A stretch of DNA of 64,000 bases, taken from IMG/VR virus record IMGVR_UViG_3300034106_001935, one strand, 5' to 3'. A program made the translations under genes and the position numbers. This document shows, in pieces, positions 6,044-64,000 of this stretch (positions within the stretch are counted from its first letter, which is position 1; each line of letters begins with the position of its first letter). Under the pieces are notes generated by a model that ran no database searches, was not told the DNA's origin, and saw nothing but the letters and a program-made list of their open reading frames with translations. This DNA comes from an uncultured virus (IMG/VR IMGVR_UViG_3300034106_001935). Lineage: Duplodnaviria; Heunggongvirae; Uroviricota; Caudoviricetes.

Positions 6044-7045
6044 ATGGCCTCATTAGCAGAAATCAGGGCACGAATTGCTGCCCAAGAAAACAAGTCAAAC
6101 AAAGGCGCATCAGGCGCTACATCTGATAACGCAATCTACCCCCACTGGAATATGGATGAAGGTACAATCGCTACTGTGCGATTTTTGCCCGATGCCAACT
6201 CTAGCAACACATTCTTTTGGGTAGAGCGTCAAATCATTAAGCTTCCCTTCAATGGTGTGAAGGGTGATCCAAACATGAAGCAAGTTGTTGTACAAGTTCC
6301 GTGCACGGAGATGTATGGCGACAGTTGCCCAGTTTTGGCAGAAGTTCGTCCTTGGTATAAGGATGAGTCATTGAAAGAAATGGCTAACAAGTATTGGAAG
6401 AAGCGTAGTTATTTGTTCCAGGGTTTCGTTCGTACAAATCCTTTAGGTGATGACAAGGCTCCTGCTAACCCTATTCGCAGGTTCATTATCAGCCCGCAAA
6501 TCTTTACTATCATCAAGTCTAGTTTGATGGATCCTGAAATGGAAGAATTGCCAACTGATTATATGCGCGGTCTTGATTTCAACATTAAGAAGACCAGCAA
6601 AGGTGGTTATGCTGATTACAGTACTTCAAACTGGGCCCGTAAGGAAAGCTCATTGACTGAGGCTGAACAAGCCGCACTTGAAAGTCATGGCTTGTTTAAT
6701 CTTGCTGACTTCTTGCCCAAGAAGCCCACTGAAGCAGAACTTCGTGTTATCAAAGAAATGTTTGAAGCAAGTGTTGATGGTAAGCCTTACGATAATGAGC
6801 GTTGGGGTCAATACTATCGTCCTTATGGACTTGAAGCTCCTGCAGGTTCTACAACGGCTGAACCAACTGCGACTGCTGGAACCAGTGCACCCGTTAAACA
6901 ACCCGTAGCAGAATCTTCTGCTCCTTGGGAAGATGAAGAACCACAAACATCTTCACAACCTGTCAAGGTTCCTAGTGCCCCATCAAGCGATAAAGCACAA
7001 GACATTTTGGCAATGATCCGAGCAAGACAGAATAAGTCTGCTTAA
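6044..7045 (+). CDS. gp32: Single-stranded DNA-binding protein, T4 gp32-like
   Basis: VRFLPD, C..MYGDSCPV zinc-site motif, ADYSTSNW; AAGGAG RBS; upstream of uvsX. Confidence 0.85.
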   Translation: MASLAEIRARIAAQENKSNKGASGATSDNAIYPHWNMDEGTIATVRFLPDANSSNTFFWVERQIIKLPFNGVKGDPNMKQVVVQVPCTEMYGDSCPVLAEVRPWYKDESLKEMANKYWKKRSYLFQGFVRTNPLGDDKAPANPIRRFIISPQIFTIIKSSLMDPEMEELPTDYMRGLDFNIKKTSKGGYADYSTSNWARKESSLTEAEQAALESHGLFNLADFLPKKPTEAELRVIKEMFEASVDGKPYDNERWGQYYRPYGLEAPAGSTTAEPTATAGTSAPVKQPVAESSAPWEDEEPQTSSQPVKVPSAPSSDKAQDILAMIRARQNKSA

Positions 7046-7521: not shown

Positions 7522-8577
7522 ATGGGAAAGCCATTTGACGTAAGTAAATTTAGAAAGGATATCACCAAGTCTATTGAGGGCTTGAGCATTGGTTTCAATG
7601 ACCCGACAGATTGGGTGAGTACAGGAAATTATGCTCTCAATTACCTCATTAGTGGTGACTTTAATAAAGGCGTACCTCTTGGTAAAGTTACTGTCTTTGC
7701 CGGAGAGTCAGGATCAGGAAAGTCATACATCTGTTCAGGCAACCTCGTCAGACACGCACAACAACAAGGCATCTTTGTTGTCTTGGTTGACTCAGAAAAT
7801 GCCTTGGATGAAGATTGGCTGAAAGCACTCGGTGTAGATACCAGTGAAGATAAACTATTGAAACTCAACATGGCAATGATTGATGATGTTGCCAAGACTA
7901 TTTCAGAGTTTATGAAGAACTACAAGGCACTGCCTGCTGATGATAAGCCTAAAGTTCTTTTCATCATTGACAGTCTAGGTATGCTACTGACACCTACTGA
8001 TGTTAATCAGTTTGAAGCAGGTGACATGAAGGGTGACATGGGTCGTAAGCCTAAGGCATTGACGGCACTTGTTCGCAACTGTGTTAATATGTTTGGCAGT
8101 CACAATGTAGGATTGGTTGCGACTAATCACACATATGCTTCACAAGATATGTTTGATCCTGATGATAAGATTTCAGGTGGTCAAGGCTTTATCTATGCTT
8201 CAAGTATTGTTGTTGCTATGCGTAAACTCAAACTTAAAGAAGATGAAGATGGCAACAAGGTAAGTGAAGTTAGAGGTATTCGTAGTGCTTGTAAGGTTAT
8301 GAAAACTCGCTACGCAAAACCATTTGAAAGTGTTCAAGTTAAGATCCCGTACGACCAAGGTATGAGTCCGTTTTCAGGTCTTACAGATTTGATTGAAGGA
8401 AAAGGATTACTCTCAAAAGAAGGTAATAGTCTGGTATATACCACAAAAGACGGAGAAATCATAAAAAAGTTTCGCAAAGGCTGGGAGCGAAATGACGATA
8501 ATTGTCTGAATATTGTAATGAAAGATATCATGCTTTCACCCAAAGAAACTCCGATGGAATCTCCTGATGAAGAATAA
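7522..8577 (+). CDS. uvsX: RecA-like recombinase UvsX
   Basis: Walker A GESGSGKS, DSENALD, IIDSLG, SGG.GFIYASS, K+R. Confidence 0.92.
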   Translation: MGKPFDVSKFRKDITKSIEGLSIGFNDPTDWVSTGNYALNYLISGDFNKGVPLGKVTVFAGESGSGKSYICSGNLVRHAQQQGIFVVLVDSENALDEDWLKALGVDTSEDKLLKLNMAMIDDVAKTISEFMKNYKALPADDKPKVLFIIDSLGMLLTPTDVNQFEAGDMKGDMGRKPKALTALVRNCVNMFGSHNVGLVATNHTYASQDMFDPDDKISGGQGFIYASSIVVAMRKLKLKEDEDGNKVSEVRGIRSACKVMKTRYAKPFESVQVKIPYDQGMSPFSGLTDLIEGKGLLSKEGNSLVYTTKDGEIIKKFRKGWERNDDNCLNIVMKDIMLSPKETPMESPDEE

Positions 8578-9619: not shown

Positions 9620-10078
9620 ATGAATTGGTACACTAAAGTCACACAAAATCTTGGTGTGATACCCGATTTTATTACACATTATGAATCAGAATTAATCTCG
9701 GCAAAAAAAGAAGTTTCCATTTATGGCAATGTAGAAAAGAACATTGCCAACCTACCGGGTGTTACTGAGCATAGATTTAACCAGCTTCAAGAAATTGAGG
9801 CTGTGTTAAATTACCTCAACATACAACTTAGGAAAATTCGCCGAAAGCATTTTCAAAAATATTTAGAAGCGTATAATAGAGCATTGACTAGCCGTGATGC
9901 TGAAAAGTATGTTGATGGTGAGGATGAAGTCATTGACTTTGAAACCATTATCAATGAAGTAGCACTACTACGCAATCGTTGGTTAGGCATTATGAAGGGT
10001 CTTGAAGCCAAACAATGGCAGATGGGACACATTGTAAGATTACGAACAGCCGGTATGGAGGACATTACAATTGGCTAA
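9620..10078 (+). CDS. uvsY: Recombination mediator UvsY-like
   Basis: Helical 152 aa, DAEKYVDGEDEV..IMKGLEAKQWQM..R..G; follows uvsX. Confidence 0.8.
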   Translation: MNWYTKVTQNLGVIPDFITHYESELISAKKEVSIYGNVEKNIANLPGVTEHRFNQLQEIEAVLNYLNIQLRKIRRKHFQKYLEAYNRALTSRDAEKYVDGEDEVIDFETIINEVALLRNRWLGIMKGLEAKQWQMGHIVRLRTAGMEDITIG

Positions 10079-16677: not shown

Positions 16678-17709
16678 ATGATTGAATTAAAAACTCGGGA
16701 ACATTTGGTATACTACATGCAGGTTGGAATGATGAAACTAAGTTCGTTGGACTTAAAGTTTGTTACTAATTTGCACTTTGCCATTTTACAAAATCAGTCT
16801 GTGACTACAAACCAAATAGCGTTATTTGAAAAATTAGTGATTAAGTATCAACGACAACTAACAAAAAATAAAATTTCACCTACCTTGATATCTAAATTAA
16901 ATTGGCAAGCAACCAATATTGTCCCCAGCGAAAAAGAATATACAGAGGCAAAGGTTTCTATTGAAAACAATTTCATATACTTTCGGTCCCCCTTCAGTAA
17001 AAAATTTATAAGTGATTTAAGAACACAAACTCATTTTTTTAAATGGGATAAGGATAACAAAAGATATTCGGCTCCGTATGGGTCGTATTCTTTGAAGTTG
17101 ATTTTAGACACAGCTAAAAAATATTATCCAGTGATTAATTACTGCGATACGACTAAAACACTTTTAGAAAAACTAAAAAGACATGATTCTGTCAAGTATT
17201 GGAACCCAACTCTGGTAAAGGTAAATAATCAGTATATGATTGCGGCTATCAACAATCATATTCATAATCAGTTGTCTAATATAACACTAAATACTGATAT
17301 AAAAACACTAGCATATCTTTCTACTCTAGGTGTAGATATCTCAGACGAGATAAAATTTCAAAACAAAAAAACCAAATTTGCTAGTGAATACGATACTGAA
17401 ATTTTAATTGAAGATATTTTTGATCTACCTCATTGGCTTCGTGAAATAGAATGCGATGCAGTTGGTATAATTGCAGAACACTCTTTGCCCCAATCATTGA
17501 AGACCGAACTAAGACAAAAGTTTTCTGAATCTGGAATTCAAGTTTTTAATTTAATGAAATTATTCTTAGAAGATGTTGATAGTTATCAAACTAAAAAAAT
17601 AGCTATCATTTATTTTTCTAGCAAAATGAATTACAAGCATACTGTATCCGATCTTAACATTACTAAAAGAATCAAAGTACTCAACAACACTCCCATAAAG
17701 ATATCATGA
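16678..17709 (+). CDS. Hypothetical protein
   Basis: 343-aa ORF, ATGA-coupled to uvsW. Confidence 0.7.
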   Translation: MIELKTREHLVYYMQVGMMKLSSLDLKFVTNLHFAILQNQSVTTNQIALFEKLVIKYQRQLTKNKISPTLISKLNWQATNIVPSEKEYTEAKVSIENNFIYFRSPFSKKFISDLRTQTHFFKWDKDNKRYSAPYGSYSLKLILDTAKKYYPVINYCDTTKTLLEKLKRHDSVKYWNPTLVKVNNQYMIAAINNHIHNQLSNITLNTDIKTLAYLSTLGVDISDEIKFQNKKTKFASEYDTEILIEDIFDLPHWLREIECDAVGIIAEHSLPQSLKTELRQKFSESGIQVFNLMKLFLEDVDSYQTKKIAIIYFSSKMNYKHTVSDLNITKRIKVLNNTPIKIS

Positions 17710-19163
17710 AAACTTGTAAAATTATTGTTAAGGATGAAGTTAATTGTAAAATAGAAAACTTGGATTTAGGAGACAGAAAAACGTTACTTCATATGTTTGA
17801 GTACGAAATTCCTGGTGCAAGGTATTTGCCCGCGGTTAGGTTAGGTCGTTGGAATGGTAAGGTAAGTTATTTTAGTTTAGGTGGTAGCACTTATCTTAAT
17901 CTATTGCCTGAGATTTTGCCCTTACTTGATCAGGCAGGATATGACATTCAGTTAGAGGACTTGCGCGAATACTCCACAACATTCAATTTTGCTCAAGTGT
18001 CCGAGGATCTATTTTCTCAACATGTATGGCCCAAGAAGCATCCATTAGAGGGTCAGCCTATTAAGTTGCGTGACTATCAAGTAGAAGTTATCAACCGTTT
18101 CTTAGAGAATCCGCAGTGTATTCAGGAAGTAGCAACAGGTGCAGGTAAAACAATTACAACGGCAGCATTGAGTTATAGCATACAAAACTATGGTCGCAGT
18201 ATCGTAATCGTTCCTAACAAGTCACTTGTTACACAAACAGAAGAAGATTATCGCAATGTAGGATTAGATGTAGGTGTCTACTTCGGTGATAGAAAAGAAA
18301 TAGGCAAGACACACACAATTTGTACTTGGCAAAGTCTCAACAATATGTTGAAGAAAACTAAAGCAGGTGAAGCAGAAATTCCTATCGGTGAGTTTATTGA
18401 AGATGTTGTTTGTATCATTGTAGACGAGGTGCATCAAGCAAAGGCAGACGCACTTAAAACACTAATGACTAGCGTATTCAGTCATGTACCTATTCGTTGG
18501 GGTCTTACTGGAACTATTCCCAAAGCAAAGTTTGAAGCACAAGCATTGTTTGTTAGTATCGGGTCCGTTGTAGGAAAACTAAGTGCCAGCGAATTACAAG
18601 ACAAAGGTGTGTTGGCACAATGTCATGTAAACATTGTGCAGTTACAAGATGGCGTAGAGTTTACAAACTATCAAAGTGAGCTAAAACATCTATTAGAAGA
18701 TAAGAAAAGATTAGACACAATCGCCGAGCTAATCTTAAAAATAAAAGACAGTGGTAATACTTTAATCCTTGTTGACCGTGTAGCAGCCGGCAAAGAATTA
18801 GTAGACCGATTACCTAATGCAGTATTTGTCAGTGGCGAAACAAAATTAACTGAAAGAAAAGAAGAATATGATGAGGTGGCGACGAGTAGTGATAAGATTA
18901 TTGTGGCGACTTACGGTGTGGCCGCTGTGGGTATTAATATTCCTCGGATTTTTAATCTGGTTCTTTTGGAGCCCGGAAAAAGCTTTGTTAGGGTTATACA
19001 ATCTATTGGGCGAGGCATTAGAAAAGCTGAGGACAAGGACTTCGTACAAATCTGGGACATAACAAGTAGTTGCAAGTTTGCCAAACGGCATTTGAGCCAA
19101 CGAAAAGCCTTTTACAAAGAGGCAAGTTATCCATTTGATATTGAAAAACTTAATTATAAGTGA
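17706..19163 (+). CDS. uvsW: SF2 DNA helicase UvsW-like
   Basis: LRDYQ, ATGAGKT, DEVH, GLTGT, QSIGRGIR. Confidence 0.9.
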   Translation: MKTCKIIVKDEVNCKIENLDLGDRKTLLHMFEYEIPGARYLPAVRLGRWNGKVSYFSLGGSTYLNLLPEILPLLDQAGYDIQLEDLREYSTTFNFAQVSEDLFSQHVWPKKHPLEGQPIKLRDYQVEVINRFLENPQCIQEVATGAGKTITTAALSYSIQNYGRSIVIVPNKSLVTQTEEDYRNVGLDVGVYFGDRKEIGKTHTICTWQSLNNMLKKTKAGEAEIPIGEFIEDVVCIIVDEVHQAKADALKTLMTSVFSHVPIRWGLTGTIPKAKFEAQALFVSIGSVVGKLSASELQDKGVLAQCHVNIVQLQDGVEFTNYQSELKHLLEDKKRLDTIAELILKIKDSGNTLILVDRVAAGKELVDRLPNAVFVSGETKLTERKEEYDEVATSSDKIIVATYGVAAVGINIPRIFNLVLLEPGKSFVRVIQSIGRGIRKAEDKDFVQIWDITSSCKFAKRHLSQRKAFYKEASYPFDIEKLNYK

Positions 19164-19175
19164 TATATTCATAAT

Positions 19176-19676
19176 ATGCGGATATTAACATTAGACAATC
19201 AACCTTACAACCTAGAAAATCTTCCCGAAGAAATAGACGATCTGCGTTTTGCAATACTAGACAACAGTAATCCACAAAATGTAGACTATCATTATATTCC
19301 ATTAATCTTTTTAGAAAGCTTTAGTGCGCCTGCACTGGTATTAAACATTGGCAACAAGCGTATTAAGATGCCAGTAGATTGGCAGATACTTATCGGTGAG
19401 AAAGAACACGGCGACTTAGAAACACTTCCACTTACTAGTATTAACGACAGGGGCTTTTCAGCATTTGAATTTAATCCACTTAGTAGCTTTAGACCAGATT
19501 TTCTACCCATTGAAATCATAGACATATACCATGATGTAACTTGGTATGCTCCTAGATTAAAGAACGGGCAGTTTTTATCTGTGCCCATTGACGATGGTCC
19601 TAAGCCCAGATGTGTTTACTTTGTTAAAGAGATTAGTAGAAACTGTGAGATTGTAGATTATAATCAGGCGTTTTGA
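19176..19676 (+). CDS. Hypothetical protein
   Basis: 166-aa ORF preceded by TTGAAA-17-TATATT. Confidence 0.7.
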   Translation: MRILTLDNQPYNLENLPEEIDDLRFAILDNSNPQNVDYHYIPLIFLESFSAPALVLNIGNKRIKMPVDWQILIGEKEHGDLETLPLTSINDRGFSAFEFNPLSSFRPDFLPIEIIDIYHDVTWYAPRLKNGQFLSVPIDDGPKPRCVYFVKEISRNCEIVDYNQAF

Positions 19677-20263
19677 TGGCAAAAGAAAAGTTATCCAAAG
19701 ACGAAAAGTTTGAAAAGCAGGATCTTGACTTGTTTGAAGTGCTTGCGGCTTTAGACAAAAAAGATTATGGATACTATGATAAGTTGACTGAGGAGCAACA
19801 GAAAAAGTTTGTTCCCTTTATGATGACTCATTGGATGAGCGCAATCAAAGGTAGTGAAGGCTTAAGCCGTTACTATGTAATGAGCGTTAACCAGTTCGCT
19901 AACAAATATTTGTTTAATGAAAATGTACAAAAGCATCCTAAACTAGTTTGGATGATGTTGTGTGCATCAAGTCCGGGTGTAGGTAAACAGTTTCATCAGT
20001 GGATCCCGCATATCTCAAGTAGTGTAAGTAAGTTAAAATCTCCGGCAAAAGTCAAAGACATTAAAGAGTACTTTGCAAAGGTATATCCAAACACAGATAG
20101 TAGTACATTGCAAGAATTCGCAGAAGAATTCGTCCGAGACAACAAGCGTAAAATTCATTTAAGTGAATTGTTTCCTTATCTTAAAATTGAAGATATTGAA
20201 ACATTAAATCAAATCGTAACCGACAAAGACATTGAACAATATGAAAAAGACAGGGGCAACTGA
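19673..20263 (+). CDS. Possible clamp-loader small subunit (gp62-like)
   Basis: LFEVLAAL..KKFVPFMM..WMS..N pattern and size; replication context. Confidence 0.45.
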   Translation: MMAKEKLSKDEKFEKQDLDLFEVLAALDKKDYGYYDKLTEEQQKKFVPFMMTHWMSAIKGSEGLSRYYVMSVNQFANKYLFNENVQKHPKLVWMMLCASSPGVGKQFHQWIPHISSSVSKLKSPAKVKDIKEYFAKVYPNTDSSTLQEFAEEFVRDNKRKIHLSELFPYLKIEDIETLNQIVTDKDIEQYEKDRGN

Positions 20264-20942
20264 AACTAAAAATTTTAGTTGTGATTTTTGTGGGCGTAGT
20301 TTTTTGCGCGAGACTACCATCGCAAAGCATTTGTGTGAATACAAACAACGATGGTTGAACAAAGAACTGCAAGGTAATAGACTGGGCTTTCAAGCATGGC
20401 TACAGTTTTACAAAAAGAATACTAGTACTAAAAAGCAAAAAACCTACGAAGAATTTATTAAGTCGGCATACTATACTGCATTCGTAAAATTCGGCACATA
20501 TTGTAGTGATGCCAATGTGTTGAATGTTAGCAGATTTGTAGATTGGCTGTTAAAGAATCAAGTCAAGATTGATACATGGAATACTGACACCACCTATACA
20601 AAATTTCTAGTTGAATACTTGCGTGAAGAAGATCCACTTGATGCAGTTGCAAGAAGTATTGAAACAACACAAAAACTAGCTGAAGTTGAAACGATACAAA
20701 CTAAAGATGTATTGCGTTATGCTAACCGTAACCGTGTTTGTTATGCGATAACAACAGGTAAAATTAGCCCATGGATGTTATATCAAAGTAATAGTGGCAC
20801 AAAGTTTTTAGATGAACTAGATCAAACACAGGTTAAGATGGTTCTTGATTATATTAATCCTGAACTATGGGCTATCAAATTTAAACGGAATCCCGACAAA
20901 GTAAAAGAAATCAAGGGTTTGCTTGATGCCGCAGGATACTAA
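20232..20942 (+). CDS. Hypothetical protein with N-terminal zinc finger
   Basis: CDFCGRSF..E.T..KHLC. Confidence 0.7.
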   Translation: MNNMKKTGATETKNFSCDFCGRSFLRETTIAKHLCEYKQRWLNKELQGNRLGFQAWLQFYKKNTSTKKQKTYEEFIKSAYYTAFVKFGTYCSDANVLNVSRFVDWLLKNQVKIDTWNTDTTYTKFLVEYLREEDPLDAVARSIETTQKLAEVETIQTKDVLRYANRNRVCYAITTGKISPWMLYQSNSGTKFLDELDQTQVKMVLDYINPELWAIKFKRNPDKVKEIKGLLDAAGY

Positions 20943-21135
20943 ATACAAGTATACCGTCAATATTCCATGGAAGTACGGAGATACAATTTCAAATTGGGAT
21001 GAAAAATGTATCTTTGCCATAGAAACATTTGGACTTCCGGGGTTGAAGTATATTACTCATCTTACCGAAGATAGTATGGATTTTATTTTTATGGAAGAAA
21101 AGGACGCTATACATTTTTCTTTAGTATGTTTATAA
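20923..21135 (+). CDS. Small protein, F.F..E.DA..F.L paralog family
   Basis: C-terminus FIFMEEKDAIHFSLVCL. Confidence 0.6.
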   Translation: MMPQDTKYKYTVNIPWKYGDTISNWDEKCIFAIETFGLPGLKYITHLTEDSMDFIFMEEKDAIHFSLVCL

Positions 21136-21392
21136 AATTACTAAAATTTGATTTGCCATATGGTGCTGGTGGTATGTCAGCGCAAATGGCTAGAGCATTA
21201 GTACTAAGAAGATTTGAACGATTCCGCAAAGAACAAGGTGTAGAGTTTAAGTATCAAACTGCGGGTTATGAATTGTTTGTATGGTTCACTAAAGAAAGTG
21301 ACTATACATACTTTACATTGATGTATGATCCTAACGATGATTGGCGCCCATACACATTAGTAGAAAAAGAGATTACAGGTGAGCAAGACTGA
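21126..21392 (+). CDS. Small protein, same paralog family
   Basis: VWFTKESDYTYFTLMY. Confidence 0.65.
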   Translation: MFIKLLKFDLPYGAGGMSAQMARALVLRRFERFRKEQGVEFKYQTAGYELFVWFTKESDYTYFTLMYDPNDDWRPYTLVEKEITGEQD

Positions 21393-21630
21393 TGTTGCTG
21401 TCTTTAATTACTATGATTATGATAAAGGATGGGACAATACTAATCCAGGATGGTATACTATCATTTTAGAAAACACAAGTCCGTTCAAACACTCTGAAAT
21501 AGTAACTTGGCTCTATGAGAATATAGATGGAACTGAACGGCATACTAGATGGATACGATTTGCGGAAAGTTCTGGCTTTAAATTTAGATATGAGCGTGAT
21601 TATATTATGTTTACATTGAGATGGTCATGA
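21379..21630 (+). CDS. Small protein, same paralog family
   Basis: FKFRYERDYIMFTLRWS. Confidence 0.65.
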   Translation: MSKTDVAVFNYYDYDKGWDNTNPGWYTIILENTSPFKHSEIVTWLYENIDGTERHTRWIRFAESSGFKFRYERDYIMFTLRWS

Positions 21631-21959
21631 GTAGCCCTTTTATATTAAATAAGTTAAAACACAAATACACAGTTACATGGCCCGCATTCCACGACATACG
21701 AGGTAATGACAGTTGCAATAACTTACTCAAAATGTTATTTGAAAAATTTAAATTAAATCAGGTGCAGTTGCTATTGAATACCGACAACATGGTTACTATT
21801 AATGCCCATGTTTGGTATAGCAATAGTGGAATGAATTATAGCGAATGGTTAATGAGCCAATATAACATTACTGGAGTTGTGTTTGATAGTAAAGAACACG
21901 CAACTGACCTACAAACAGAATTAGAAAAAAGGTACATGTGGAAACTCCTAAAAGCATAA
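21621..21959 (+). CDS. Small protein, probable divergent member of the family
   Basis: VVFDSKEHA..L. Confidence 0.6.
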   Translation: MVMSSPFILNKLKHKYTVTWPAFHDIRGNDSCNNLLKMLFEKFKLNQVQLLLNTDNMVTINAHVWYSNSGMNYSEWLMSQYNITGVVFDSKEHATDLQTELEKRYMWKLLKA

Positions 21960-22171
21960 ATATAGAATGGGTAGATAATGTAGTTAGGCTGTACAAAATT
22001 AAAGCTACAGAAGCAATAGACTACAAGTATGAACTTATAAGAGCAGGTCTTGTTCTTGATGTTGATTTTCAATGGGTATGGTATACACCTACTGAGGACG
22101 CAACATCAAAAGTAGAATTTATTTTTAAAAACCCTGCTCATGCTACCTTATATAAATTAAAATGGGAATAG
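21938..22171 (+). CDS. Small protein, same paralog family
   Basis: FIFKNPAHATLYKLKWE. Confidence 0.65.
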   Translation: METPKSINIEWVDNVVRLYKIKATEAIDYKYELIRAGLVLDVDFQWVWYTPTEDATSKVEFIFKNPAHATLYKLKWE

Positions 22172-22172
22172 T

Positions 22173-22874
22173 ATGAATGTAGTTAAACACCAGCTTACCA
22201 CAGGCAACGGCTACCTTATCCTTGAAAAAATAATACCAGATGAATTGATTGATAGTATCTTGGCTAAAAAAGAATTACTGTATCCAGTTCGTGCTAGTTC
22301 TAGTAACAAAAAGTATGCCGAGCGTAATGAGATTGAAAAATTACCTAATGTAAGTGTTTGGTGGAGCCAATTTGTTATGGATTGGCCCGAAGTTATACAA
22401 ATAGAACAATTAATAAACCCCACAGTTAATATGCATCTGCCTAAAGCAGAATGGTATGCTAGCGACATTGTAACTATAAACGCAGGATCTACTTGGATCA
22501 ATCCCCATGTTGATACTCCGCATAGATTTAAAAAATATAACTTTAACAAAAACTTTTTAGGCATACAAGCTATAGTTTCCTTATATGACTTAGATAAAAC
22601 TAATGGAGCTACAGGTATAGTTCCTAAAAGTCAAATGGTAAATTACAATATAGATTTTTGTTATCAGGGAATGTACGACGGATTCTTTAAAGCGAATTCT
22701 ATTCAGCCCTCTTTACCAAAAGGTAGTGTGTTGCTATATAACTCTAGGGTATTGCATTCTAGTATGCCCAATCCTACTAAACAAAATCGCCCAGCTCTCT
22801 TGCTTAATTATCTTGACAGTAGTATCATTGAAGATGTAAGAAGTCTAGATAATATTTGGCAAAGTAATGGCTAG
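22173..22874 (+). CDS. Fe(II)/2-oxoglutarate dioxygenase, PhyH family
   Basis: NGYLILEKII, HVD (HxD), NGATGIVPKS, GSVLLYNSRVLHSS.PN....R. Confidence 0.85.
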   Translation: MNVVKHQLTTGNGYLILEKIIPDELIDSILAKKELLYPVRASSSNKKYAERNEIEKLPNVSVWWSQFVMDWPEVIQIEQLINPTVNMHLPKAEWYASDIVTINAGSTWINPHVDTPHRFKKYNFNKNFLGIQAIVSLYDLDKTNGATGIVPKSQMVNYNIDFCYQGMYDGFFKANSIQPSLPKGSVLLYNSRVLHSSMPNPTKQNRPALLLNYLDSSIIEDVRSLDNIWQSNG

Positions 22875-23148
22875 CATCCCTAAAAGTTTTCAAGACTATG
22901 ATGAAGATGACCCGTTGAACGATCAACGGAAAAAACGCTGGGATTACTGGGCAGCATTAAAACAAGTTCGGCAAGAATATATGAGTATCTTGGATACATC
23001 AAGTAATCAATTTGATGCCTACGAATTTGAAGATTATCTAGAAAATAATTATGGTGTAAAGATGAACATGGTCAATGGTAACATTACTGATGGTTACAAG
23101 ATTATGGACGAGAAAAAATATTTACTATTTCTATTAAAGTTTCAGTAA
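22867..23148 (+). CDS. Hypothetical protein, related to the small paralog family
   Basis: YKIMDEKKYLLFLLKFQ C-terminus. Confidence 0.65.
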   Translation: MASIPKSFQDYDEDDPLNDQRKKRWDYWAALKQVRQEYMSILDTSSNQFDAYEFEDYLENNYGVKMNMVNGNITDGYKIMDEKKYLLFLLKFQ

Positions 23149-23705
23149 TGGCAAATGATATAATGGTTGATCTGGAGACGCTTGACACAAGCCCTTATTG
23201 TGTTATACTTACCATCGGGGCTGTGAGATTTGATCCTAAGGGTCAAGGTGTTATAGAACGGTTAGAGTTGCGTCCTACAATTGAGGATCAGACAGAAATA
23301 CACAACAGAGTTATCAACGAAGATACATTGCGTTGGTGGAGTACACAAAGTCCTGAAGCAATGGAAGAAGCATTGGGAGATAGGGATCGTATTTCATTTA
23401 AAGAATGTATGGAACAACTTTATAAGTTTTGTTGGAATCGTAGAGCAGTTTGGAGTAACGGAGCGGCATTTGATGTGGTCGCATGCGAAACAGGCATGCG
23501 TCAAACATTAACTGATTATCCTAATCCTATACCCTGGCCTTTCTATACTGTTCGTGATACTAGAACATTGTATGAGATTGCCGGAGTAAAATTAAAAGAT
23601 GGTGGACACAAGACTAGTCACAAAGCAGTAGAAGATGCTGAACGACAGGCAATTGTTGTACAACAGGCTTACATGAAATTAATGAAGGCAGGTTTTATGT
23701 CATGA
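23148..23705 (+). CDS. DEDD(h) 3'-5' exonuclease
   Basis: MVDLETL, WSNGAAFD, RDTRTL, HKAVEDA. Confidence 0.85.
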   Translation: MANDIMVDLETLDTSPYCVILTIGAVRFDPKGQGVIERLELRPTIEDQTEIHNRVINEDTLRWWSTQSPEAMEEALGDRDRISFKECMEQLYKFCWNRRAVWSNGAAFDVVACETGMRQTLTDYPNPIPWPFYTVRDTRTLYEIAGVKLKDGGHKTSHKAVEDAERQAIVVQQAYMKLMKAGFMS

Positions 23706-24292
23706 CCTACACATTTGTTTCAGCATTGATGCTACTGATACTTATATTTGATCCGTTTGGAAATTTTCCCATCTTTAGTAGTACACTAAAAAAGTATAGC
23801 GTAGAAAAAAGAAGTTGGATTATCGTGCGTGAGCATTTTATTGCTTTCGGTATTCTATTTCTTTTTATGATTGTGGGTCAGCACTTTTTAAGTGCATTGG
23901 GATTAAGTAATGCTAGTCTCCAATTAGCAGGCGCAGTTATTTTATTTCTTATTGCTATAAAAATGGTATTTCCTAATGATTCTAATGTTGAAGAAGAAAT
24001 ATTGGACCATGAACCATTTATAGTGCCATTGGCAATACCATTGATTGCAGGACCTAGTGCGTTAGCTACTGTGATGTTATTAGTTAGTCAGCAACCCGAT
24101 GAGTTTTGGGTATGGGTGGCAGCGATGGGAGTAGGTATTACCATAAGTATGATTGCTTTATTAATAGGTGATAGAATACAACATCTATTGGGTAATAGAT
24201 TTTTAATTGCTATGGAAAGATTAATGGGTCTTATATTGGTAGCAGTTAGCGTTGAAATGTTATTGCGTGGCATAAAAACAATACAATTATGA
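23702..24292 (+). CDS. marC: MarC family inner-membrane protein
   Basis: DPFGNFPIF, AGAVILFLIAIKM, VPLAIPLIAGPSALA, ERLMGLIL; about six TM segments. Confidence 0.88.
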   Translation: MTYTFVSALMLLILIFDPFGNFPIFSSTLKKYSVEKRSWIIVREHFIAFGILFLFMIVGQHFLSALGLSNASLQLAGAVILFLIAIKMVFPNDSNVEEEILDHEPFIVPLAIPLIAGPSALATVMLLVSQQPDEFWVWVAAMGVGITISMIALLIGDRIQHLLGNRFLIAMERLMGLILVAVSVEMLLRGIKTIQL

Positions 24293-24873
24293 AAATTGAT
24301 ACTGATGTAGACATTGACTTAGCAGATAGAAGTACATTACTGCAACATATAAAACATATCCCTTCAGCTATGCTAAAGGTAAATCCTATTCGCAAGCATG
24401 CTACTGGAGTTCATATTACAGAAATACCCTACGATCCTGTAAATGATATGGCAGCTATTGACTATTCAGACGCAGAAAAGAGGGGTTATTTTAAGTTGGA
24501 TTTATTGAATGTACATGTTTATAAGCATGTCCGTGATGAAAAGCATTTGATAGAACTTATGCGGGATCCTGACTGGAAGAAATTGAATGATCCGTTCTTT
24601 GTAGAAAAACTAATTCATATTGGAAATCATTATCCGTCACTAACTAAGATGCCTGAACCAGTCAATAGTATTCCTAGACTTGCTATGTTTCTAGCATTGA
24701 TTCGCCCGGGAAAAAAGCATCTGATTGGACTACCCTGGATTGAAGTAGCAAAAACAATATGGGATCGTGGCACTGACGGATATCAGTTTAAGAAAGCACA
24801 CGCGGTTGGGTATGCGTGGCTAGTAGCAGTACATATGAATTTATTAGTAGAATTAGGAAATACGCTTGACTAG
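24289..24873 (+). CDS. Miniature DNA polymerase III alpha (DnaE)-like protein
   Basis: DVDIDL, KHATGV, GYFKLDLL, ALIRPG, GYQFKKAHAVGYA in DnaE order within 194 aa. Confidence 0.75.
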   Translation: MKIDTDVDIDLADRSTLLQHIKHIPSAMLKVNPIRKHATGVHITEIPYDPVNDMAAIDYSDAEKRGYFKLDLLNVHVYKHVRDEKHLIELMRDPDWKKLNDPFFVEKLIHIGNHYPSLTKMPEPVNSIPRLAMFLALIRPGKKHLIGLPWIEVAKTIWDRGTDGYQFKKAHAVGYAWLVAVHMNLLVELGNTLD

Positions 24874-26143: not shown

Positions 26144-27118
26144 ATGATGTTTGATATCCTGTCTGTTATTCCGGGTAAGAAAAAACTCACACAAAGCGGT
26201 TGGCATAGTTTCAACGCAGTGTGTTGCCATAATCGTGGTCACAAACCCGATAAACGCAGTCGCGGCGGAATCAGAATGGACGGTGATAATTGGAGTATGC
26301 ATTGTTTCAACTGTGGGTTCAAGTGTGGATTCATGTTGGGAAAAAGCATAACCAAAAATACAAAACAATTATTGATGTGGTCTGGCATAGACGAACAGCA
26401 AATCCAACGCTGGAGCCTTGAAAGTTTACAGCATAAAGATTTATTGTCTTATGTACAAGTTAAAAAGAATAAAAAGAAAATCAAGTTTAAAGAACATACT
26501 CTTCCCGAAGGTGAATTACTTGATGTAAACAATCCATTACACAAAGTATATGTGGATTATGTGCAGGCACGGGGTATAAATGTTAGTGACTACCCGTTCA
26601 TGATTACACCAAATGAAAGTGGTCGCCAAGGCAATAGAATAATCATTCCATATACCTATCAAAATAAAATTGTAGGTCACACCAGTCGCTTCTTAGACAA
26701 CAAGACACCTAAATACATCAATGAGCAACAGCAAGGATATGTGTTTGGTATTGATTTTCAAAAACCTGAATATGAAGTTTGTATATTGGTAGAAGGTATT
26801 TTTGACGCATTAAGTATCAATGGTTGTGCGTTAACTCATAACACAATTAATGATGACCAAGTTGAGTTATTGAGCCAACTCAATAGAAAAATTATCTTTG
26901 TACCAGATCGTGATAAGACAGGGCTTAGTACTTGTGATAAAGCATTAGAATTAGGATATAGTGTTAGTATACCAAATTGGGACAATGATGTAAAAGATGT
27001 AAACGATGCAGTAGTAAAATATGGTAAACTCCCTACATTACTAAGTATCTTACAGAGTGCAACTACAAGTAAAGTCAAAATAGAAATACAGAGGAGAAAA
27101 CTTGAGCACAGAATATAA
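26144..27118 (+). CDS. gp61: DNA primase (gp61-like)
   Basis: Zn-binding CCH..HCFNCG, TOPRIM LVEGIFDA and PDRD, KDVND. Confidence 0.88.
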   Translation: MMFDILSVIPGKKKLTQSGWHSFNAVCCHNRGHKPDKRSRGGIRMDGDNWSMHCFNCGFKCGFMLGKSITKNTKQLLMWSGIDEQQIQRWSLESLQHKDLLSYVQVKKNKKKIKFKEHTLPEGELLDVNNPLHKVYVDYVQARGINVSDYPFMITPNESGRQGNRIIIPYTYQNKIVGHTSRFLDNKTPKYINEQQQGYVFGIDFQKPEYEVCILVEGIFDALSINGCALTHNTINDDQVELLSQLNRKIIFVPDRDKTGLSTCDKALELGYSVSIPNWDNDVKDVNDAVVKYGKLPTLLSILQSATTSKVKIEIQRRKLEHRI

Positions 27119-28517
27119 TAGTGATATGCAGTTGTTGTTTTTGCGTATGATGGTTACAAACGCAGAACTGTATACACGGGTCATGAATATCATGAACCCA
27201 AGTAATTTTGACCGCAAATTAAAACCTGTAGCAGAATTTTTAGTAGAGCATAGCAAAAAATATAACATTATGCCCGACCCTGCGCAGGTAAAGGCATCAA
27301 CAGGAGTTGAAGTTGAAAACATTTCAGAACTTGATGATGGGCACTATCAGTGGTTTCTAGATGAATTTGAACAATTCACTAAACGACAAGAACTTGAAAG
27401 AGCGATTCTTAAATCAGCAGACTTACTTGAAAAGGGTGAGTATGGTCCTGTAGAAAAACTAATCAAAGACGCCGTGCAGATTAGTCTACAGAAAGATATG
27501 GGTACAGATTACTTTGCTGATCCTAGAGCACGATTGATGGCATTGAAATCTAACAATGGACAGAATAGCACTGGCTGGCCTAGTATGGATCAGAAATTAT
27601 ATGGTGGTTTCAATCGCGGTGAACTTCAAATTTTTGCAGGTGGCTCAGGATCAGGCAAGAGTTTGTTCATGCAGAATTTAGCAGTTAACTGGGCACAAGC
27701 AGGATTAAACGGTGTGTATGTAACACTAGAACTTAGTGAGGGCTTGTGTAGTATGCGTATTGATAGTATGATGACAGATACAAGCAGCCGTGAAATCTTC
27801 AAAGACATTGACAATGTTGAAATGAAGGTCAAGATGCTACAAAAGAAAGCAGGTGGCTTGCGAATCAAATATATGCCTGCTCAAAGTACAGTAAATGATT
27901 TAAGAGCATATTGTAAAGAACTTCAAATTCAAACAGGTTTGAGACTTGACTTTTTGTGTGTAGACTATTTGGACTTGCTCATGCCTGTCAGCGCAAAGGT
28001 CAGTCCTTCAGACTTGTTTGTGAAAGACAAATATGTATCGGAAGAGTTGCGTAACTTGGCTAAAGAATTAAATGTATTATTTGTCACAGCAAGTCAGTTG
28101 AACCGTAGTGCTGTAGAAGAAATTGAATTTGATCATAGTCATATCTCAGGTGGTATTTCAAAGATTAACACAGCAGATAATGTGTTCGGTATCTTTACTT
28201 CTAGGTCTATGCGTGAGCGTGGACAGTATCAATTACAGTTAATGAAAACCCGTAGTAGTTCGGGTGTGGGACAAAAGATTGAGTTGGAATTTAATGTAGA
28301 AACATTAAGAATTACGGATCCTAATCCTGACGCAAATACTTACAAAGCTCCGCAACCTAGTCCCAATGATCTAATGAATAGGCTTAAAACTCAGAGTACA
28401 GTAGTTTCAGAAACTGTAGATCCAAACACAGGCGAAATTCAGCCTGAAACTAAGAAAGTGGTCGCTGATGTAGGAAGTGCAAAACTCAAGGCCCTATTAA
28501 ATTCGCTCAAAAAATAA
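27102..28517 (+). CDS. gp41: Replicative DnaB-like helicase (gp41-like)
   Basis: GGSGSGKS, TLELSE, VDYLDL, TASQLNR. Confidence 0.9.
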   Translation: MSTEYNSDMQLLFLRMMVTNAELYTRVMNIMNPSNFDRKLKPVAEFLVEHSKKYNIMPDPAQVKASTGVEVENISELDDGHYQWFLDEFEQFTKRQELERAILKSADLLEKGEYGPVEKLIKDAVQISLQKDMGTDYFADPRARLMALKSNNGQNSTGWPSMDQKLYGGFNRGELQIFAGGSGSGKSLFMQNLAVNWAQAGLNGVYVTLELSEGLCSMRIDSMMTDTSSREIFKDIDNVEMKVKMLQKKAGGLRIKYMPAQSTVNDLRAYCKELQIQTGLRLDFLCVDYLDLLMPVSAKVSPSDLFVKDKYVSEELRNLAKELNVLFVTASQLNRSAVEEIEFDHSHISGGISKINTADNVFGIFTSRSMRERGQYQLQLMKTRSSSGVGQKIELEFNVETLRITDPNPDANTYKAPQPSPNDLMNRLKTQSTVVSETVDPNTGEIQPETKKVVADVGSAKLKALLNSLKK

Positions 28518-56568: not shown

Positions 56569-59500
56569 ATGCCATTTCCAGTAAGTCCTACAAATAATCA
56601 AATCTACAACGATGGTACTTATAATTACCGTTATAATTCTATGTTCAGATCCTGGACTAAGATAGCACAAACGGTTTCTAATATTTCATCTCCTAGTGCC
56701 AATGTTGTAACTTCAAATGGCAATGTTACTACAGGAAATGTTGCTGTTAGCCCTGCCAATATTACTGTAGGTAATACTACAGTTGCTAATAATAGTGTAA
56801 CTGTGGGTAATACAACTGTCAATAATGCAAACGTTACTGTTGGTAATACAGTCGTAGCAAATAACACAGTGACAGTGGGTAATACAACGATTAATAATGC
56901 AAACATTGTAATAGGAAATACCACCGTTGCTAATAATAATGTCACGGTTGGTACAACGGTTATCGGAAACACTTCAATTTCAACACCTAATGTGACTGCA
57001 AACATAACCAGCGGTAATACAAGTATCGTTCCTGTTGCCAATGGTAACGTTGCAATAAGTGTGGCTGGAACTTCTAATGTAGTTGTTGTTTCAAACACCG
57101 GTGCTAACATTAGTGGAAATGTAGCAGTAACATCAAATATTTCTGCTGCTAATATTTCTACAGGAAATATTGCTATAACAGGATCCGGTAATATTACCGG
57201 TGACTTAAATGTTACTGGTAACTTGACTTCGGGAAATGCAAATTTAGGTAACTTAGCTAAAGCTAACTTCTTTCAAGGTGATGGTAGCTTATTAACTAAT
57301 GTTTCAGTAGCAGCTGGAAGCTATATTTTAAATGGTACTAGTAATGTATATGTAGATATTAATAGTAATGTAAGGACTAGTGTTGGTGGAAACGCAAATG
57401 TATTTGTAGTCACTGGTACCGGTGTTACTGTGGCAGGAACATTAAATGCTACTGGCAATGCTAACGTAGGAAACCTAGGTGCTACTACTATTGTTGGAAA
57501 CTTATCTGGTAATGTTACTACATCAGCACAACCTAATATCACAAGTTTAGGCACATTAACAGGTTTAACAGTTAGTGGTACAACTAATTTAGGTGCCGTT
57601 GGTAATGTGACAATTACAGGTGGCACTGCAAATTATTTTTTGATGACAAACGGATCAGGATCTCTATCATGGAATAATGCAGCAGGAGTTCCCGCGCCCG
57701 GGTCTAACACACAAATCTTTTTTAATGACAATGGCAATTATGCTGCTAACTCAGGATTTACATTTAATAAGACTACCGGTAATGTAAATTTACCAAGTAA
57801 TTTAGTTGTAGGCAATAATGTTACTGCGACAACTTTTACCGGTGCTTTAACAACAAGTTCGCAACCAAATGTTACTAGTGTTGGTACTTTAGTATCTTTA
57901 GTTCTTTCCGGAAATATCAATAGCAGCGGAAATATTATTCTAAATGCAGGTTTCGTAAATGCCGCCGGCAATGTCACGGGTGGAAATCTAACTACAGCCG
58001 GACAAGTAGTAGCTACTGGAAACATCACTGGTAATTATTTTATAGGAAATGGTAGTCAACTAACAGGTATAGATGCAACTGCAATACAAAACGGAAATGC
58101 TAATGTAAGAACTTTCAGTAATAGTAATGTAACTATCAGTGCATCAGGTAATGCTAATATTGTTGTAGTAACAGGTACGGGAGTAAACGTTGCAGGTACA
58201 TTGAATGTAACCGGTAATGCTAACGTTGGTAATTTAGGAGCTGCGGGTGTTGTCGCAACGACATTAGGTGGCACACTAACTACCGCAAGCCAGCCAAACA
58301 TCACTGGAGTGGGTACACTAACTTCACTAGGTGTTAACGGCACAGTCACCGCAGTAAACTTCACTGCTAATACAGGTGTATTTGCCGGTAGTGGTGCTAA
58401 CTTAACGACACTAAATGCAAGTAACATTTCAAGTGGTACATTAGCACAAGCAAGGCTTGCTAACGCATCATTAACTGTTAACGGCACAAGTATTACGCTT
58501 GGTGGTTCAGGCACAATTACTGCTAATACTACTCAAAGCCATAGTAATGGTTCATATATAACCGGTGGTAGTTTCAACGGTGGAACTGCTATTACTTGGG
58601 CAGTTGATGCAACAGATGCAGCCACAGCAAGTAAGGTTGTGGCGCGTGATACAAATGGTAGTTTTGCAGGTAACGTAATAACCGCAACAACATTTAGTGG
58701 TAGTGGTGCTAACTTAACGACACTAAATGCAAGTAACATTTCAAGTGGTACTCTTGCACAAGCAAGACTTGCTAACAGTTCATTGACTGTTAACGGCACA
58801 AGTATTACGCTTGGTGGTTCAGGAACTATTACTGCAAACACTACACAAACATTGACTTTAGGTTCATTCCTAACTGGTACAAGTTTCAATGGTGGTACAG
58901 CAGTAACAGCGGCAGTTGATGCTACATCAGCGAATACTGCAAGCAAGGTTGTTGCTAGAGATGCTAGCGGTAACTTTAGTGCAGGAACTATTACTGCAAC
59001 ACTTAGTGGCTCAGCAACAAGTGCAACTACTGCAGGTACAGTAACAACAGCGGCTCAACCAAATATTACTAGTGTTGGTACATTAACTTCTGTTGCAGTA
59101 ACAGGAAATGCTAACGTCGGTAATTTAAATGCGACTACTGCGGTTGTTGCAAGTACATTAACTTCAAACGTAGCAACTGGTACCGCTCCACTAACAGTAA
59201 CAAGCACTACCCGCGTTTCAAATTTGAACGTTGCTTATGCAAACGTTGCTGATAATATTAACGTGGCTGCCGGCACAGGAAACAACTTCCTTATTTTTGC
59301 AAATGCGGCAACAGGCAACGTTGCAGAACTAACAAGTACCGGTCTTACCGCTAACTTATCTAATAACTCTATTACTGCTACAACATTCGTCGGTGCATTG
59401 AGCGGTGCTGCTACTAGCGCAACTACAGCAGGTACAGTAACAACAGCCGCTCAACCAAATATTACATCTGTCGGTACTTTAACAAGTTTATCATCTAGCG

Positions 59501-59853
59501 GTAATATTAGTGCTGCGAATGTTTCAGTAAGTGGATTCCATATTCGTTCAGTAACTACTGGTATTGCGGCAGCAGGTACTGCTCAAGGCAATGCTACAGC
59601 ATTGACTACAGAAATTAACATGATATCAACTGTTTCAAGCGGGCAAGGTGTAAGATTACCAACAGCCGTTGCAGGTATGGTTATAATAATTACGAACTTG
59701 TCTGCTAATTCATTACTAGTTTATCCGCATACAGGTGGCGATATTAACGGTGCTGCAGCCAACGTTGCATATACACAGACTGCAGGTTCAACACTGCAAT
59801 TCATGACTCCAAATACCACAGATTGGTACACAGTTGGAGCAACATACGCATAA
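56569..59853 (+). CDS. Long tail fibre protein (Gly/Asn/Thr/Ala-rich repeats)
   Basis: FP.SPT..Q N-terminus; TVGNTTV.NN repeats; multiple QPNITSVGTL. Confidence 0.75.
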   Translation: MPFPVSPTNNQIYNDGTYNYRYNSMFRSWTKIAQTVSNISSPSANVVTSNGNVTTGNVAVSPANITVGNTTVANNSVTVGNTTVNNANVTVGNTVVANNTVTVGNTTINNANIVIGNTTVANNNVTVGTTVIGNTSISTPNVTANITSGNTSIVPVANGNVAISVAGTSNVVVVSNTGANISGNVAVTSNISAANISTGNIAITGSGNITGDLNVTGNLTSGNANLGNLAKANFFQGDGSLLTNVSVAAGSYILNGTSNVYVDINSNVRTSVGGNANVFVVTGTGVTVAGTLNATGNANVGNLGATTIVGNLSGNVTTSAQPNITSLGTLTGLTVSGTTNLGAVGNVTITGGTANYFLMTNGSGSLSWNNAAGVPAPGSNTQIFFNDNGNYAANSGFTFNKTTGNVNLPSNLVVGNNVTATTFTGALTTSSQPNVTSVGTLVSLVLSGNINSSGNIILNAGFVNAAGNVTGGNLTTAGQVVATGNITGNYFIGNGSQLTGIDATAIQNGNANVRTFSNSNVTISASGNANIVVVTGTGVNVAGTLNVTGNANVGNLGAAGVVATTLGGTLTTASQPNITGVGTLTSLGVNGTVTAVNFTANTGVFAGSGANLTTLNASNISSGTLAQARLANASLTVNGTSITLGGSGTITANTTQSHSNGSYITGGSFNGGTAITWAVDATDAATASKVVARDTNGSFAGNVITATTFSGSGANLTTLNASNISSGTLAQARLANSSLTVNGTSITLGGSGTITANTTQTLTLGSFLTGTSFNGGTAVTAAVDATSANTASKVVARDASGNFSAGTITATLSGSATSATTAGTVTTAAQPNITSVGTLTSVAVTGNANVGNLNATTAVVASTLTSNVATGTAPLTVTSTTRVSNLNVAYANVADNINVAAGTGNNFLIFANAATGNVAELTSTGLTANLSNNSITATTFVGALSGAATSATTAGTVTTAAQPNITSVGTLTSLSSSGNISAANVSVSGFHIRSVTTGIAAAGTAQGNATALTTEINMISTVSSGQGVRLPTAVAGMVIIITNLSANSLLVYPHTGGDINGAAANVAYTQTAGSTLQFMTPNTTDWYTVGATYA
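58387..58847 (+). repeat. Internal direct repeat of about 150 bp, period 312 bp (104 aa)
   Basis: GGTAGTGGTGCTAACTTAACGACACTAAATGCAAGTAACATTTCAAGTGGTAC at 58387 and 58699. Confidence 0.85.
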
Positions 59854-59862
59854 AGGTGAAAT

Positions 59863-60486
59863 ATGGTAACATTAGAATTATTAACGGCAATGTGCCCAAA
59901 AACAAAAAGAGCTATATTAGAAGGTTATGTGGAACCTTTAAATACAGTAGCAGAATATTATGAGATGTTTCAGAATCCGCGCAGAGTTGCAGGATTCTTG
60001 GCACAAATAGCACACGAATCAGGTGGATTTACTGCTGTTGTAGAAAATCTTAACTACAGTGCTAAAGGTTTGATGACTACATTTAAGAAATACTTTCCTA
60101 CAGAAGAATTAGCAAAGCAGTATGAAAGAAAACCACAAATGATTGCTAACCGTGTTTATGCTAATCGCATGAAGAACGGTGATGAAGCAAGTGGTGATGG
60201 ATTTAAGTTCAGAGGTCGTGGGTTGATTCAACTTACCGGTCGTGACAACTACACACGCTTTGCAGAAGCACTAGATATGGATCTTGACAGTACAATTGCT
60301 TATTTAGAAACACCCAATGGTGCTGTAGCAAGTGCCGGCTGGTTCTGGGACAATAATAAGTTAAATCAGTTCTGCGACAAAGATGATTTCATTACATTGA
60401 CAAAAAGAATCAATGGTGGCACCATTGGTTTAGCGGATAGACAACATCACTATCATTTGGCATTACAACATTTAGGCGCACATTAA
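59863..60486 (+). CDS. Glycoside hydrolase family 19 lysin
   Basis: FLAQIAHESGGF, ENLNYS, FRGRGLIQLTGRDNY, TKRINGG..GLADR. Confidence 0.9.
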   Translation: MVTLELLTAMCPKTKRAILEGYVEPLNTVAEYYEMFQNPRRVAGFLAQIAHESGGFTAVVENLNYSAKGLMTTFKKYFPTEELAKQYERKPQMIANRVYANRMKNGDEASGDGFKFRGRGLIQLTGRDNYTRFAEALDMDLDSTIAYLETPNGAVASAGWFWDNNKLNQFCDKDDFITLTKRINGGTIGLADRQHHYHLALQHLGAH

Positions 60487-60487
60487 A

Positions 60488-63271: not shown

Positions 63272-63291
63272 ATATAATACGGAATTAAATT

Positions 63292-64000
63292 ATGAGTACA
63301 ATTAACACAAACGGAATTGATGTAAATTATCCAGTGCCCGGACAAAATAATAGTTCACAGGGCTTTAGAAATAATTTTGCCGCCATCAAAACAAATTTAG
63401 ATGCAGCAGGAAATGAAATTTCTGATTTACAGAATAAAGTAGTTCTTAAATCAGCATTGGCTAATGCTGCATTGAATAATGATATGGCCAACACACTGAT
63501 CAGTAATGCATCCACACGCAGTTTCAGAGCCACAACTTATAATTTAGGAAATAATCTTTCCGGTACAGTTTTAATAGATGCATCATTGGGTGATGTTCAA
63601 TATGGTACAGTAGCAGAAGATGTAGTAATTCAGTTCGGCGGATGGTCCCCAGTAGCTACTCAAGGTGGTATAAAATTAGAATTGGCAGTTAGCAATGCTA
63701 ATGCGTCAATCACTTTCCCAAGTGAAGTTGTTTGTACAAACAATAACTTTGGTGCTACAACCTTAGAAAATTTCACTAATACTGCTAATGCAGCCGTGAT
63801 TACTACTCCATATGGAGTCTCACAATTAAATTATCAACTTAATTCTAATGATTGCGGTGACACAATTGTTATATCACCAACAAACAGGCCTCGTATAACA
63901 ACTCAGATTCAAAATAGAACTCCTTCCCCAACAGGATTTAAGGGGGATGTAGCTGGAACTGTCGCTGTTGATGCGGACTATTTGTATGTATGCACCGGCA
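63292..64000 (+). CDS. Virion structural protein (3' truncated)
   Basis: MSTINTNGIDVNYPVPGQNNSSQGFRNNF..IK; CTAAATA upstream; open to window end. Confidence 0.7.
   Translation, partial: MSTINTNGIDVNYPVPGQNNSSQGFRNNFAAIKTNLDAAGNEISDLQNKVVLKSALANAALNNDMANTLISNASTRSFRATTYNLGNNLSGTVLIDASLGDVQYGTVAEDVVIQFGGWSPVATQGGIKLELAVSNANASITFPSEVVCTNNNFGATTLENFTNTANAAVITTPYGVSQLNYQLNSNDCGDTIVISPTNRPRITTQIQNRTPSPTGFKGDVAGTVAVDADYLYVCTG

Follow-up and report, generated by a model that had tools for sequence, protein, structure and literature searches.

Judging from its sequence, the 194-aa open reading frame studied here is the C-terminal half (C-half) of a split minimal Pol III alpha and not a stand-alone palm, and the window gene is a further member of the family described in 2021 (Iyer et al. 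2021, Viruses 13:63, PMC7824862). The frame lies within a 64,000-nucleotide stretch of viral DNA, referred to below as the window, and the complementary N-terminal half (N-half) was located past the window end on an overlapping assembly. On the basis of the residues that they carry, the two halves together probably constitute a templated, dNTP-selective, distributive DNA polymerase without clamp binding or intrinsic editing, acting as a helper of the phage family B polymerase. What is added here is the matched pair and the B polymerase tied to the window, a natural fusion of the halves, a residue inventory, and limits on the link to the neighbouring exonuclease. The puzzle posed by these genes is why a minimal family C core should be retained as a second polymerase in T4-like giants, which have a family B replicase.

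The C-terminal half and its register with DnaE

An earlier note on this DNA had described the frame as having clean ends and five DnaE-like motifs in order, and both points were confirmed. The frame starts with an ATG overlapping the MarC stop codon by 4 nt and ends with TAG, beyond which the same frame closes within 24 codons and the two shifted frames within at most 12, so that no readthrough or frameshifted continuation was found. The motifs are DxDVDID at residues 4–10, HATGV at 37, KLDLL at 69, ALIRPG at 136, and FKKAHAVGY at 167. The proposed homology to DnaE was likewise borne out by the match to PHROG 11778 "DNA polymerase" (E 2.4e-55) and by the profile built from 120 C-half homologues, which found E. 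coli Pol III alpha among the PDB entries (E 6e-5); Pfam and NCBIfam models gave no match to the C-half.

Homologues were abundant, with 5,540 confirmed among 5,587 candidates. In a collection of 50,697 phage records, the C-half was matched in 96, with at least 80% of its length covered in every one, and the 60 among the matches listed were all phages of the RaK2, PA5oct/Paride, and Atu_ph07 types. Length was 185–216 aa in 119 of the 120 closest homologues, while the best 150 cluster representatives comprised 83 of 175–220 aa, 65 shorter ones, many of which were probably cut at contig ends, and two longer ones. The median dN/dS was 0.073 (127 pairs from 52 distinct gap-free sequences), close to the 0.082 of the primase. 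The frame is thus real, conserved in length, and under purifying selection; because of these lengths and this ratio it is not a decayed fragment, and the random-length, decaying homologues named beforehand as a refutation were not seen. RNA data yielded a single 252-base contig from one run, which gives support in neither direction, and the record nearest to the window (G001), an 8% fragment, contained neither half.

The AF2 model of the C-half (pLDDT 95) aligned along its whole length with PolC (3f2b; Z 10.0, rmsd 3.2, 190 residues aligned) and also matched residues 398–784 of E. coli alpha (Z 7.8, rmsd 3.9, 191 aligned). The top seven rows of the structure comparison were all family C polymerases and the next row stood at Z 4.0; Foldseek alone gave at best only E 5e-3. 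In the resulting register, D6, D8, and D10 correspond to D401, D403, and D405 of E. coli alpha, an assignment made because these three are conserved and D4 is not, H37 corresponds to H511, K69 and D71 to K553 and D555, R139-P140 to R639-P640, and Y165, F167, H171, and Y175 to Y754, F756, H760, and Y764, respectively. Over 83 diverse full-length homologues, D6, D8, and D10 were each kept in 81, K69 and D71 in all 83, R139 and P140 in 82 each, and H171 in 78, in agreement with the earlier claim of intact catalytic Asp residues; the equivalents of Tyr754 and G641 were kept in 59 and 35 of the 83. Two newly conserved lysines, K142 and K168 (75/83 each), may stand in for lost arginines.

The deletions relative to E. 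coli alpha are large. Between D405 and H511 the spacing shrinks from 106 residues in E. coli to 27 in the C-half, and between R639 and F756 from 117 to 28. In the model, the first gap is closed by a strand pair (residues 24–28 and 35–42), which probably represents the two thumb strands placed in the minor groove by the cryo-EM preprint (10.64898/2026.06.29.735100). The C-half is thus the second palm part with, probably, thumb strands and finger remnants, and is devoid of the Gly-Ser (GS) motif. The label "palm-only" applied to it previously did not hold, since the N-terminal palm part with the GS motif is absent and finger remnants are kept. That the PHP, clamp, and OB domains are missing was correctly stated; the PHP, thumb, full finger, clamp-binding, and OB domains of replicative DnaE are absent from both halves. 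The window contained no other DnaE-like stretch (best E 0.82).

The N-terminal half, a natural fusion and a modelled heterodimer

The IMG/VR locus L104 (record G008) matches window positions 58810–64000 over 5,191 bases with no mismatch, and carries the N-half (Table 1), an N-terminal palm part scoring over the PF07733 cut-off. The distance between the halves is about 41 kb in window/L104 coordinates, the link being the overlap of two assemblies and not one contig. A separate PF07733 gene of about 170 aa was found in 5 of 5 records of relatives and then in 2 of 5 more, which were both of the complete ones (the three misses being 8–58% complete); the N-half was thus present in 7 of 7 complete or near-complete records, with one PF07733 match per relative genome. 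In four colinear genomes, 34–46 kb separate it from the C-half, compared with about 180 kb in Atu_ph07. The N-half stops at about residue 393 of E. coli alpha and the C-half begins at about 398. Global profile alignments to the E. coli pieces were poor, and only local blocks were used. The GS motif, R137-G138-S139, is invariant in 122 N-halves; Arg390 is replaced by Glu in 122 of 122 close N-halves, in three cultured phages, and in the fusion described below. The three catalytic Asp residues plus the GS motif of a Pol-beta-like palm were accordingly found in the two halves jointly and not in the C-half alone, so that the earlier suggestion of a self-sufficient minimal nucleotidyltransferase could not be upheld, the GS motif being in the separate N-half.

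The first 30 residues of the N-half (L104:6663–6760) loosely align to residues 238–265 or so of E. coli alpha, the end of the PHP domain; this likeness was seen in the aquatic clade, not clearly in the cultured phages, and may be due to chance. The N-half sits in a conserved run (L104:6018–10474) of a 202-aa protein, the N-half, a 125-aa protein, a GroES-like protein, and a loader-type AAA+ protein, with a similar order in RaK2, Paride, and Atu_ph07. The 202-aa protein had no Pfam match; its fold may be QueD-like.

A natural in-frame fusion of the N- and C-halves was identified in the cluster representative P0287 (375 aa, about 7 residues between the halves), which is 32% identical to the N-half (161 columns) and 39% identical to the C-half (184 columns). 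It aligns continuously to E. coli alpha over the junction and retains all checked catalytic motifs. Its model aligned to residues 272–773 of E. coli alpha, and to 5lew at Z 12.5 (rmsd 5.3, 268 aligned); P0287 was folded with C-half rows only, its N part being weak (pLDDT below 50 over 85 residues), and a mixed N+C alignment, which scrambled the halves, was left out. The NCBIfam DnaE models scored the N-half and the fusion far below every cut-off. P0287 is a single sequence on one 2,415-base ENA contig; faulty assembly or a fusion that arose late could account for it. Used as a query, it matched 96 phage records at 188 places, and 92 records would hold both halves if none has more than two places (30 rows among the matches listed). 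A fusion at one place was found in none of these 96 records, an N-half within 3 kb of the C-half in none of the best 80 of 594 confirmed loci, and DNA context for P0287 in no viral or metagenome contig; a word search for longer fused forms gave none in 337 candidates, a weak search, as it should have reached P0287. The 233-aa P0353 consists of a C-half start with an unrelated tail, looks chimeric, and was dropped.

For the window C-half with the L104 N-half, the predicted complex scored 0.91 and the best of three controls 0.00, with contacts agreeing to at least 98% and a partner pLDDT of 89. The mark applied to this score is reached by 116 of 157 solved pairs and 2 of 215 mismatched pairs, and split halves tend to pass this test by likeness to solved structures, here possibly those of Pol III, so that the score shows likeness, not binding. 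In the model, D10 is predicted to contact N-half residues 133–134, adjacent to the GS motif.

Gene setting, family B polymerase and neighbouring exonuclease

Table 1. Positions of the two polymerase halves and of associated genes (window coordinates unless a locus is named)
Feature	Position	Strand	Remarks
SSB	6044–7045		upstream of UvsW
UvsX	7522–8577		upstream of UvsW
UvsY	9620–10078		upstream of UvsW
UvsW-like helicase	17706–19163	+	
Conserved protein	19676–20263	+	PHROG 11758; same operon
C2H2-finger protein	20238–20942	+	PHROG 11058
DEDDh 3'-5' exonuclease, Rv2179c/RNase AS-like	23148–23705	+	PF16473 E 2e-30; PHROG 255 E 9e-36
MarC/NAAT membrane protein	23702–24292	+	PF01914 E 1e-47; between DEDD and C-half genes, 4-nt overlap with each
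C-half, judged C-terminal half of split minimal Pol III alpha	24289–24873	+	194 aa; spans E. coli alpha ~398–784 with large deletions
Convergent gene, 126 aa	24853–25233	-	PHROG 11637; 3' end overlaps C-half
DNA primase (Toprim)	26144–27118	+	
DnaB-like replicative helicase	27102–28517	+	
N-half	L104:6663–7169		168 aa; window-equivalent 65472–65978, past the window end by ~1.5 kb
Family B polymerase frame	L230:487–1674		396 aa, cut by end of record G008; window-equivalent start ~87,080; PF03104 E 2.6e-22

In cultured and uncultured phages alike, the C-half gene lies between the UvsW gene and the primase/DnaB genes. The replication set of group 2 (SSB, UvsW, DnaB, primase, RFC-type loader) was found, the loader-type AAA+ gene being on L104; a genome above 200 kb was seen only in relatives. 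A gp43-type polymerase, for which a search had been advised, was found as a family B frame in the same record as L104, and full-length family B frames were present in 4 of 4 near-complete relatives. The 525-kb record G005, which underlies locus L043, has two such frames of 1,117 and 917 aa, which could reflect a second polymerase or a chimeric assembly.

The DEDD exonuclease does stand two genes upstream of the C-half, as first noticed, with the MarC gene between them. Its acidic motifs are present (residues 8–10, 108, and the H159–D164 region), and its nearest solved relative is PDB 8KEL, "Exodeoxyribonuclease" (227 aa; E 6e-5), which we take to be T4 DexA. It gave no match to the DnaQ/epsilon-type PF00929 at E 0.1, and neither this domain nor the constant linkage of an epsilon-type proofreading subunit was found for it. 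The family is widespread in phages without this polymerase (433 records). Out of 80 close loci, 56 span the full upstream interval and 46 of these have the exonuclease gene. Of the 65 loci in which this gene was seen, 45 show a 4-nt overlap between it and the start of the C-half; on a 42-row tree, its presence changes four times, at least twice on well-supported branches. Among the diverse loci (the best 80 of 594 confirmed, 70 of them with at least 1.5 kb upstream), it was adjacent in 0 of 46 below 55% identity and in 8 of 24 above, none of the eight falling under 61%. In two records that carry both halves, G002 (95% complete) and G006 (100%), searches with the DEDD protein, PF16473, and PF00929 all came back empty; G003 and G005 served as positive controls in the protein search. 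A different exonuclease of DEDD type (PF00929) is encoded about 5 kb upstream within the same run of genes in RaK2; the PF00929 exonucleases of Paride and Atu_ph07 lie elsewhere in their genomes. The window exonuclease is under selection, as seen from two pairs plus one strain pair with 15 synonymous and 2 non-synonymous differences. We read it as a clade-level gain in the close aquatic relatives, translationally coupled and not a core subunit, although perhaps useful to the polymerase; of the partnership proposed earlier, what stood is thus the association within one aquatic clade, whereas a general pairing is contradicted by the diverse loci and by G002 and G006.

The MarC gene is a recent insert, present in 2 of 80 close loci, both of this phage species, and in none of the best 80 of 594 diverse loci. 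MarC is rare in phages (4 records, below 30% identity); the gene is intact and differs from that of locus L005 by 4 synonymous and 0 non-synonymous changes. In the variable interval upstream of the exonuclease lies a PhyH-family 2-oxoglutarate/Fe dioxygenase gene (22173–22874), which stands directly upstream of the C-half in a clade without the exonuclease (L006–L016). Further upstream, positions 20923–22171 hold a run of five small genes (70–112 aa), several with F-x-L-x-W-like tails.

The most constant neighbour of the C-half is the convergent 126-aa gene, downstream in 73 of 74 diverse loci (among the best 80 of 594). Its product has a WWWES motif and a basic tail, and against the PDB reached only the anti-CRISPR 9wa8 at a non-significant E 0.68. 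The C2H2 gene was upstream in 63 of 70 diverse loci (again among the best 80 of 594) and is the immediate upstream gene in Paride; its N-terminal zinc finger resembles eukaryotic fingers (profile E 2e-6 to Gfi-1). A possible likeness of the 19676–20263 protein to the T4 clamp-loader small subunit was not confirmed. As candidates for missing DnaE parts these constant neighbours were rejected, the Atlas, PDB, and Pfam giving no match beyond the C2H2 finger.

Proposed working, alternatives and known systems

According to the cryo-EM preprint (10.64898/2026.06.29.735100), the GS motif binds the dNTP, D401/D403 bind metal, K553 contacts the primer phosphate, and R639-P640-G641 the templating base, while Y754 makes a stacking contact with the incoming base, and a gating role against rNTPs is proposed for H760; R390A caused a 27-fold loss, and the thumb wedge Tyr453 serves Pol III proofreading. 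The paired halves retain the metal, primer, template, and rNTP-gate residues; Arg390, the thumb helices, and the greater part of the index finger are missing. Arg396 falls in the split between the halves, Lys543 aligns to Tyr, and the Arg709/Arg710/Lys714/Lys715 stretch is deleted in the C-half, as is the part with the Y453 wedge. Even at about 30% identity, the four acidic residues, K553, and the GS motif hardly vary.

In the reading that we prefer, the C-half would supply metal, primer, and template binding to a two-subunit family C core, to which the N-half would contribute the Arg-Gly-Ser nucleotide-binding motif; the rebuilt enzyme of about 360 aa would extend a templated strand by a few dNTPs at a time, with neither a clamp nor proofreading of its own, and would help the phage family B replicase. 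It might extend primase-made primers before a hand-off or fill short gaps in UvsX/UvsW recombination and repair; these jobs are about equally likely, and gene context cannot separate them. The heterodimer is a modelled one, and we infer its activity, dNTP choice, and low processivity. Against this reading count the lost dNTP-binding residues, namely Arg390, Arg396, the Arg709–Lys715 stretch, and Lys543. Synthesis of RNA primers or signalling nucleotides, as suggested in the earlier note, would fit poorly because the His760 and RPG equivalents are retained. More tentatively, the split core possibly acts in connection with the replisome to extend primers with DNA, much as Bacillus DnaE or eukaryotic Pol alpha does; it would make DNA-ended primers from primase products for the family B replicase with a rewired pocket, in which Arg390 has become Glu, Asn757 has become Lys, and the closing index finger is missing. 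Were this true, the 375-aa fusion would be a working single-chain family C polymerase at a third of DnaE size.

Another Pol-beta-fold transferase, engaged in untemplated tailing, DNA or protein nucleotidylation, pyrophosphorolysis, or signal synthesis, would also be in keeping with a core that lacks Arg390, Arg396, its index-finger arginines, and its thumb helices, and with a phage that has a full family B polymerase; we regard this as unlikely in view of the kept R639-P640 (82/83), K553 (83/83), and His760 gate (78/83) and the constant position among replication genes. The lost triphosphate-binding arginines could also point to a catalytically idle scaffold or to a mimic of the host Pol III, with primer ends or components of the host replisome as its binding targets. 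Near-invariance of the four acidic residues, K553, and the GS motif makes this highly improbable, and the clamp-, tau-, and epsilon-binding regions that a mimic would presumably need are absent.

The idea that the 194-aa protein is sufficient by itself, and that the DEDD nuclease is dedicated to proofreading or trimming for it, draws on the 46 of 56 close loci, the 4-nt overlap in 45 of 65, and the PF00929 exonucleases of RaK2, Paride, and Atu_ph07; yet the GS motif sits in the N-half, adjacency falls to 0 of 46 below 55% identity (best 80 of 594), both halves but no DEDD gene were detected in G002 and G006, and the Tyr453 proofreading wedge is in the deleted part, leaving the chance of such a pairing very slim. 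Least credible, to the point of being negligible, is a conventional multi-part DnaE replicase with other parts elsewhere. A complementary piece does exist in the N-half, as the earlier note had allowed, and there are constant neighbours without assignment; the halves, however, total only about 360 aa and form no conventional replicase, one PF07733 match per genome and no other DnaE-like stretch in the window were detected, a family B polymerase is present, and the thumb and finger deletions cannot be plain splits because they are internal to the C-half.

Considered as a two-subunit family C core, the pair shares with DnaE/PolC (E. coli alpha, Geobacillus 3f2b) the palm fold and order, the GS motif, D401/D403/D555, K553, the RP pair, and the F-x-K-x-H helix-loop-helix. 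It differs in having about 360 aa in two chains instead of about 1,160, in the absence of the PHP barrel, thumb helices, most of the fingers, and the clamp-binding and OB parts, and in the Glu and Lys at the positions of Arg390 and Asn757. If active, the split core would set the minimum requirement of a family C polymerase; an easy assay is offered by the single-chain form and by the two matching halves, which come from one phage population, and the culturable phages (Paride/PA5oct, RaK2-like) make genetics possible. Bacillus subtilis DnaE, a primer extender acting before PolC (PMC3664799), offers a functional analogy only, in that it is a second polymerase, of family C, that is tied to primase and helicase and then gives way to the main replicase; unlike that full-length, biochemically demonstrated enzyme, the pair would serve a family B main enzyme.

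No experimental study of split minimal Pol III alpha was found in the literature, subscription papers being mostly outside the coverage. For the split minimal Pol III alpha found in jumbo phages of group 2.2, the 2021 account suggested that it works jointly with the family B polymerase, either in synthesizing strands or in repair (PMC7824862). The genes described here resemble that group in the stand-alone C-terminal Mg/template-binding subdomain of about 190 aa, the distant separate gene for the N-terminal NTP-binding subdomain, and the family B polymerase in the same genome. Section 3.4.1 of that account makes no mention of the fused form, the Arg390 loss, or the index-finger loss, which its supplement may cover. 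Differing from the account as published are the uncultured aquatic clade, the PF16473 exonuclease beside the C-half, and the species-specific MarC insert.
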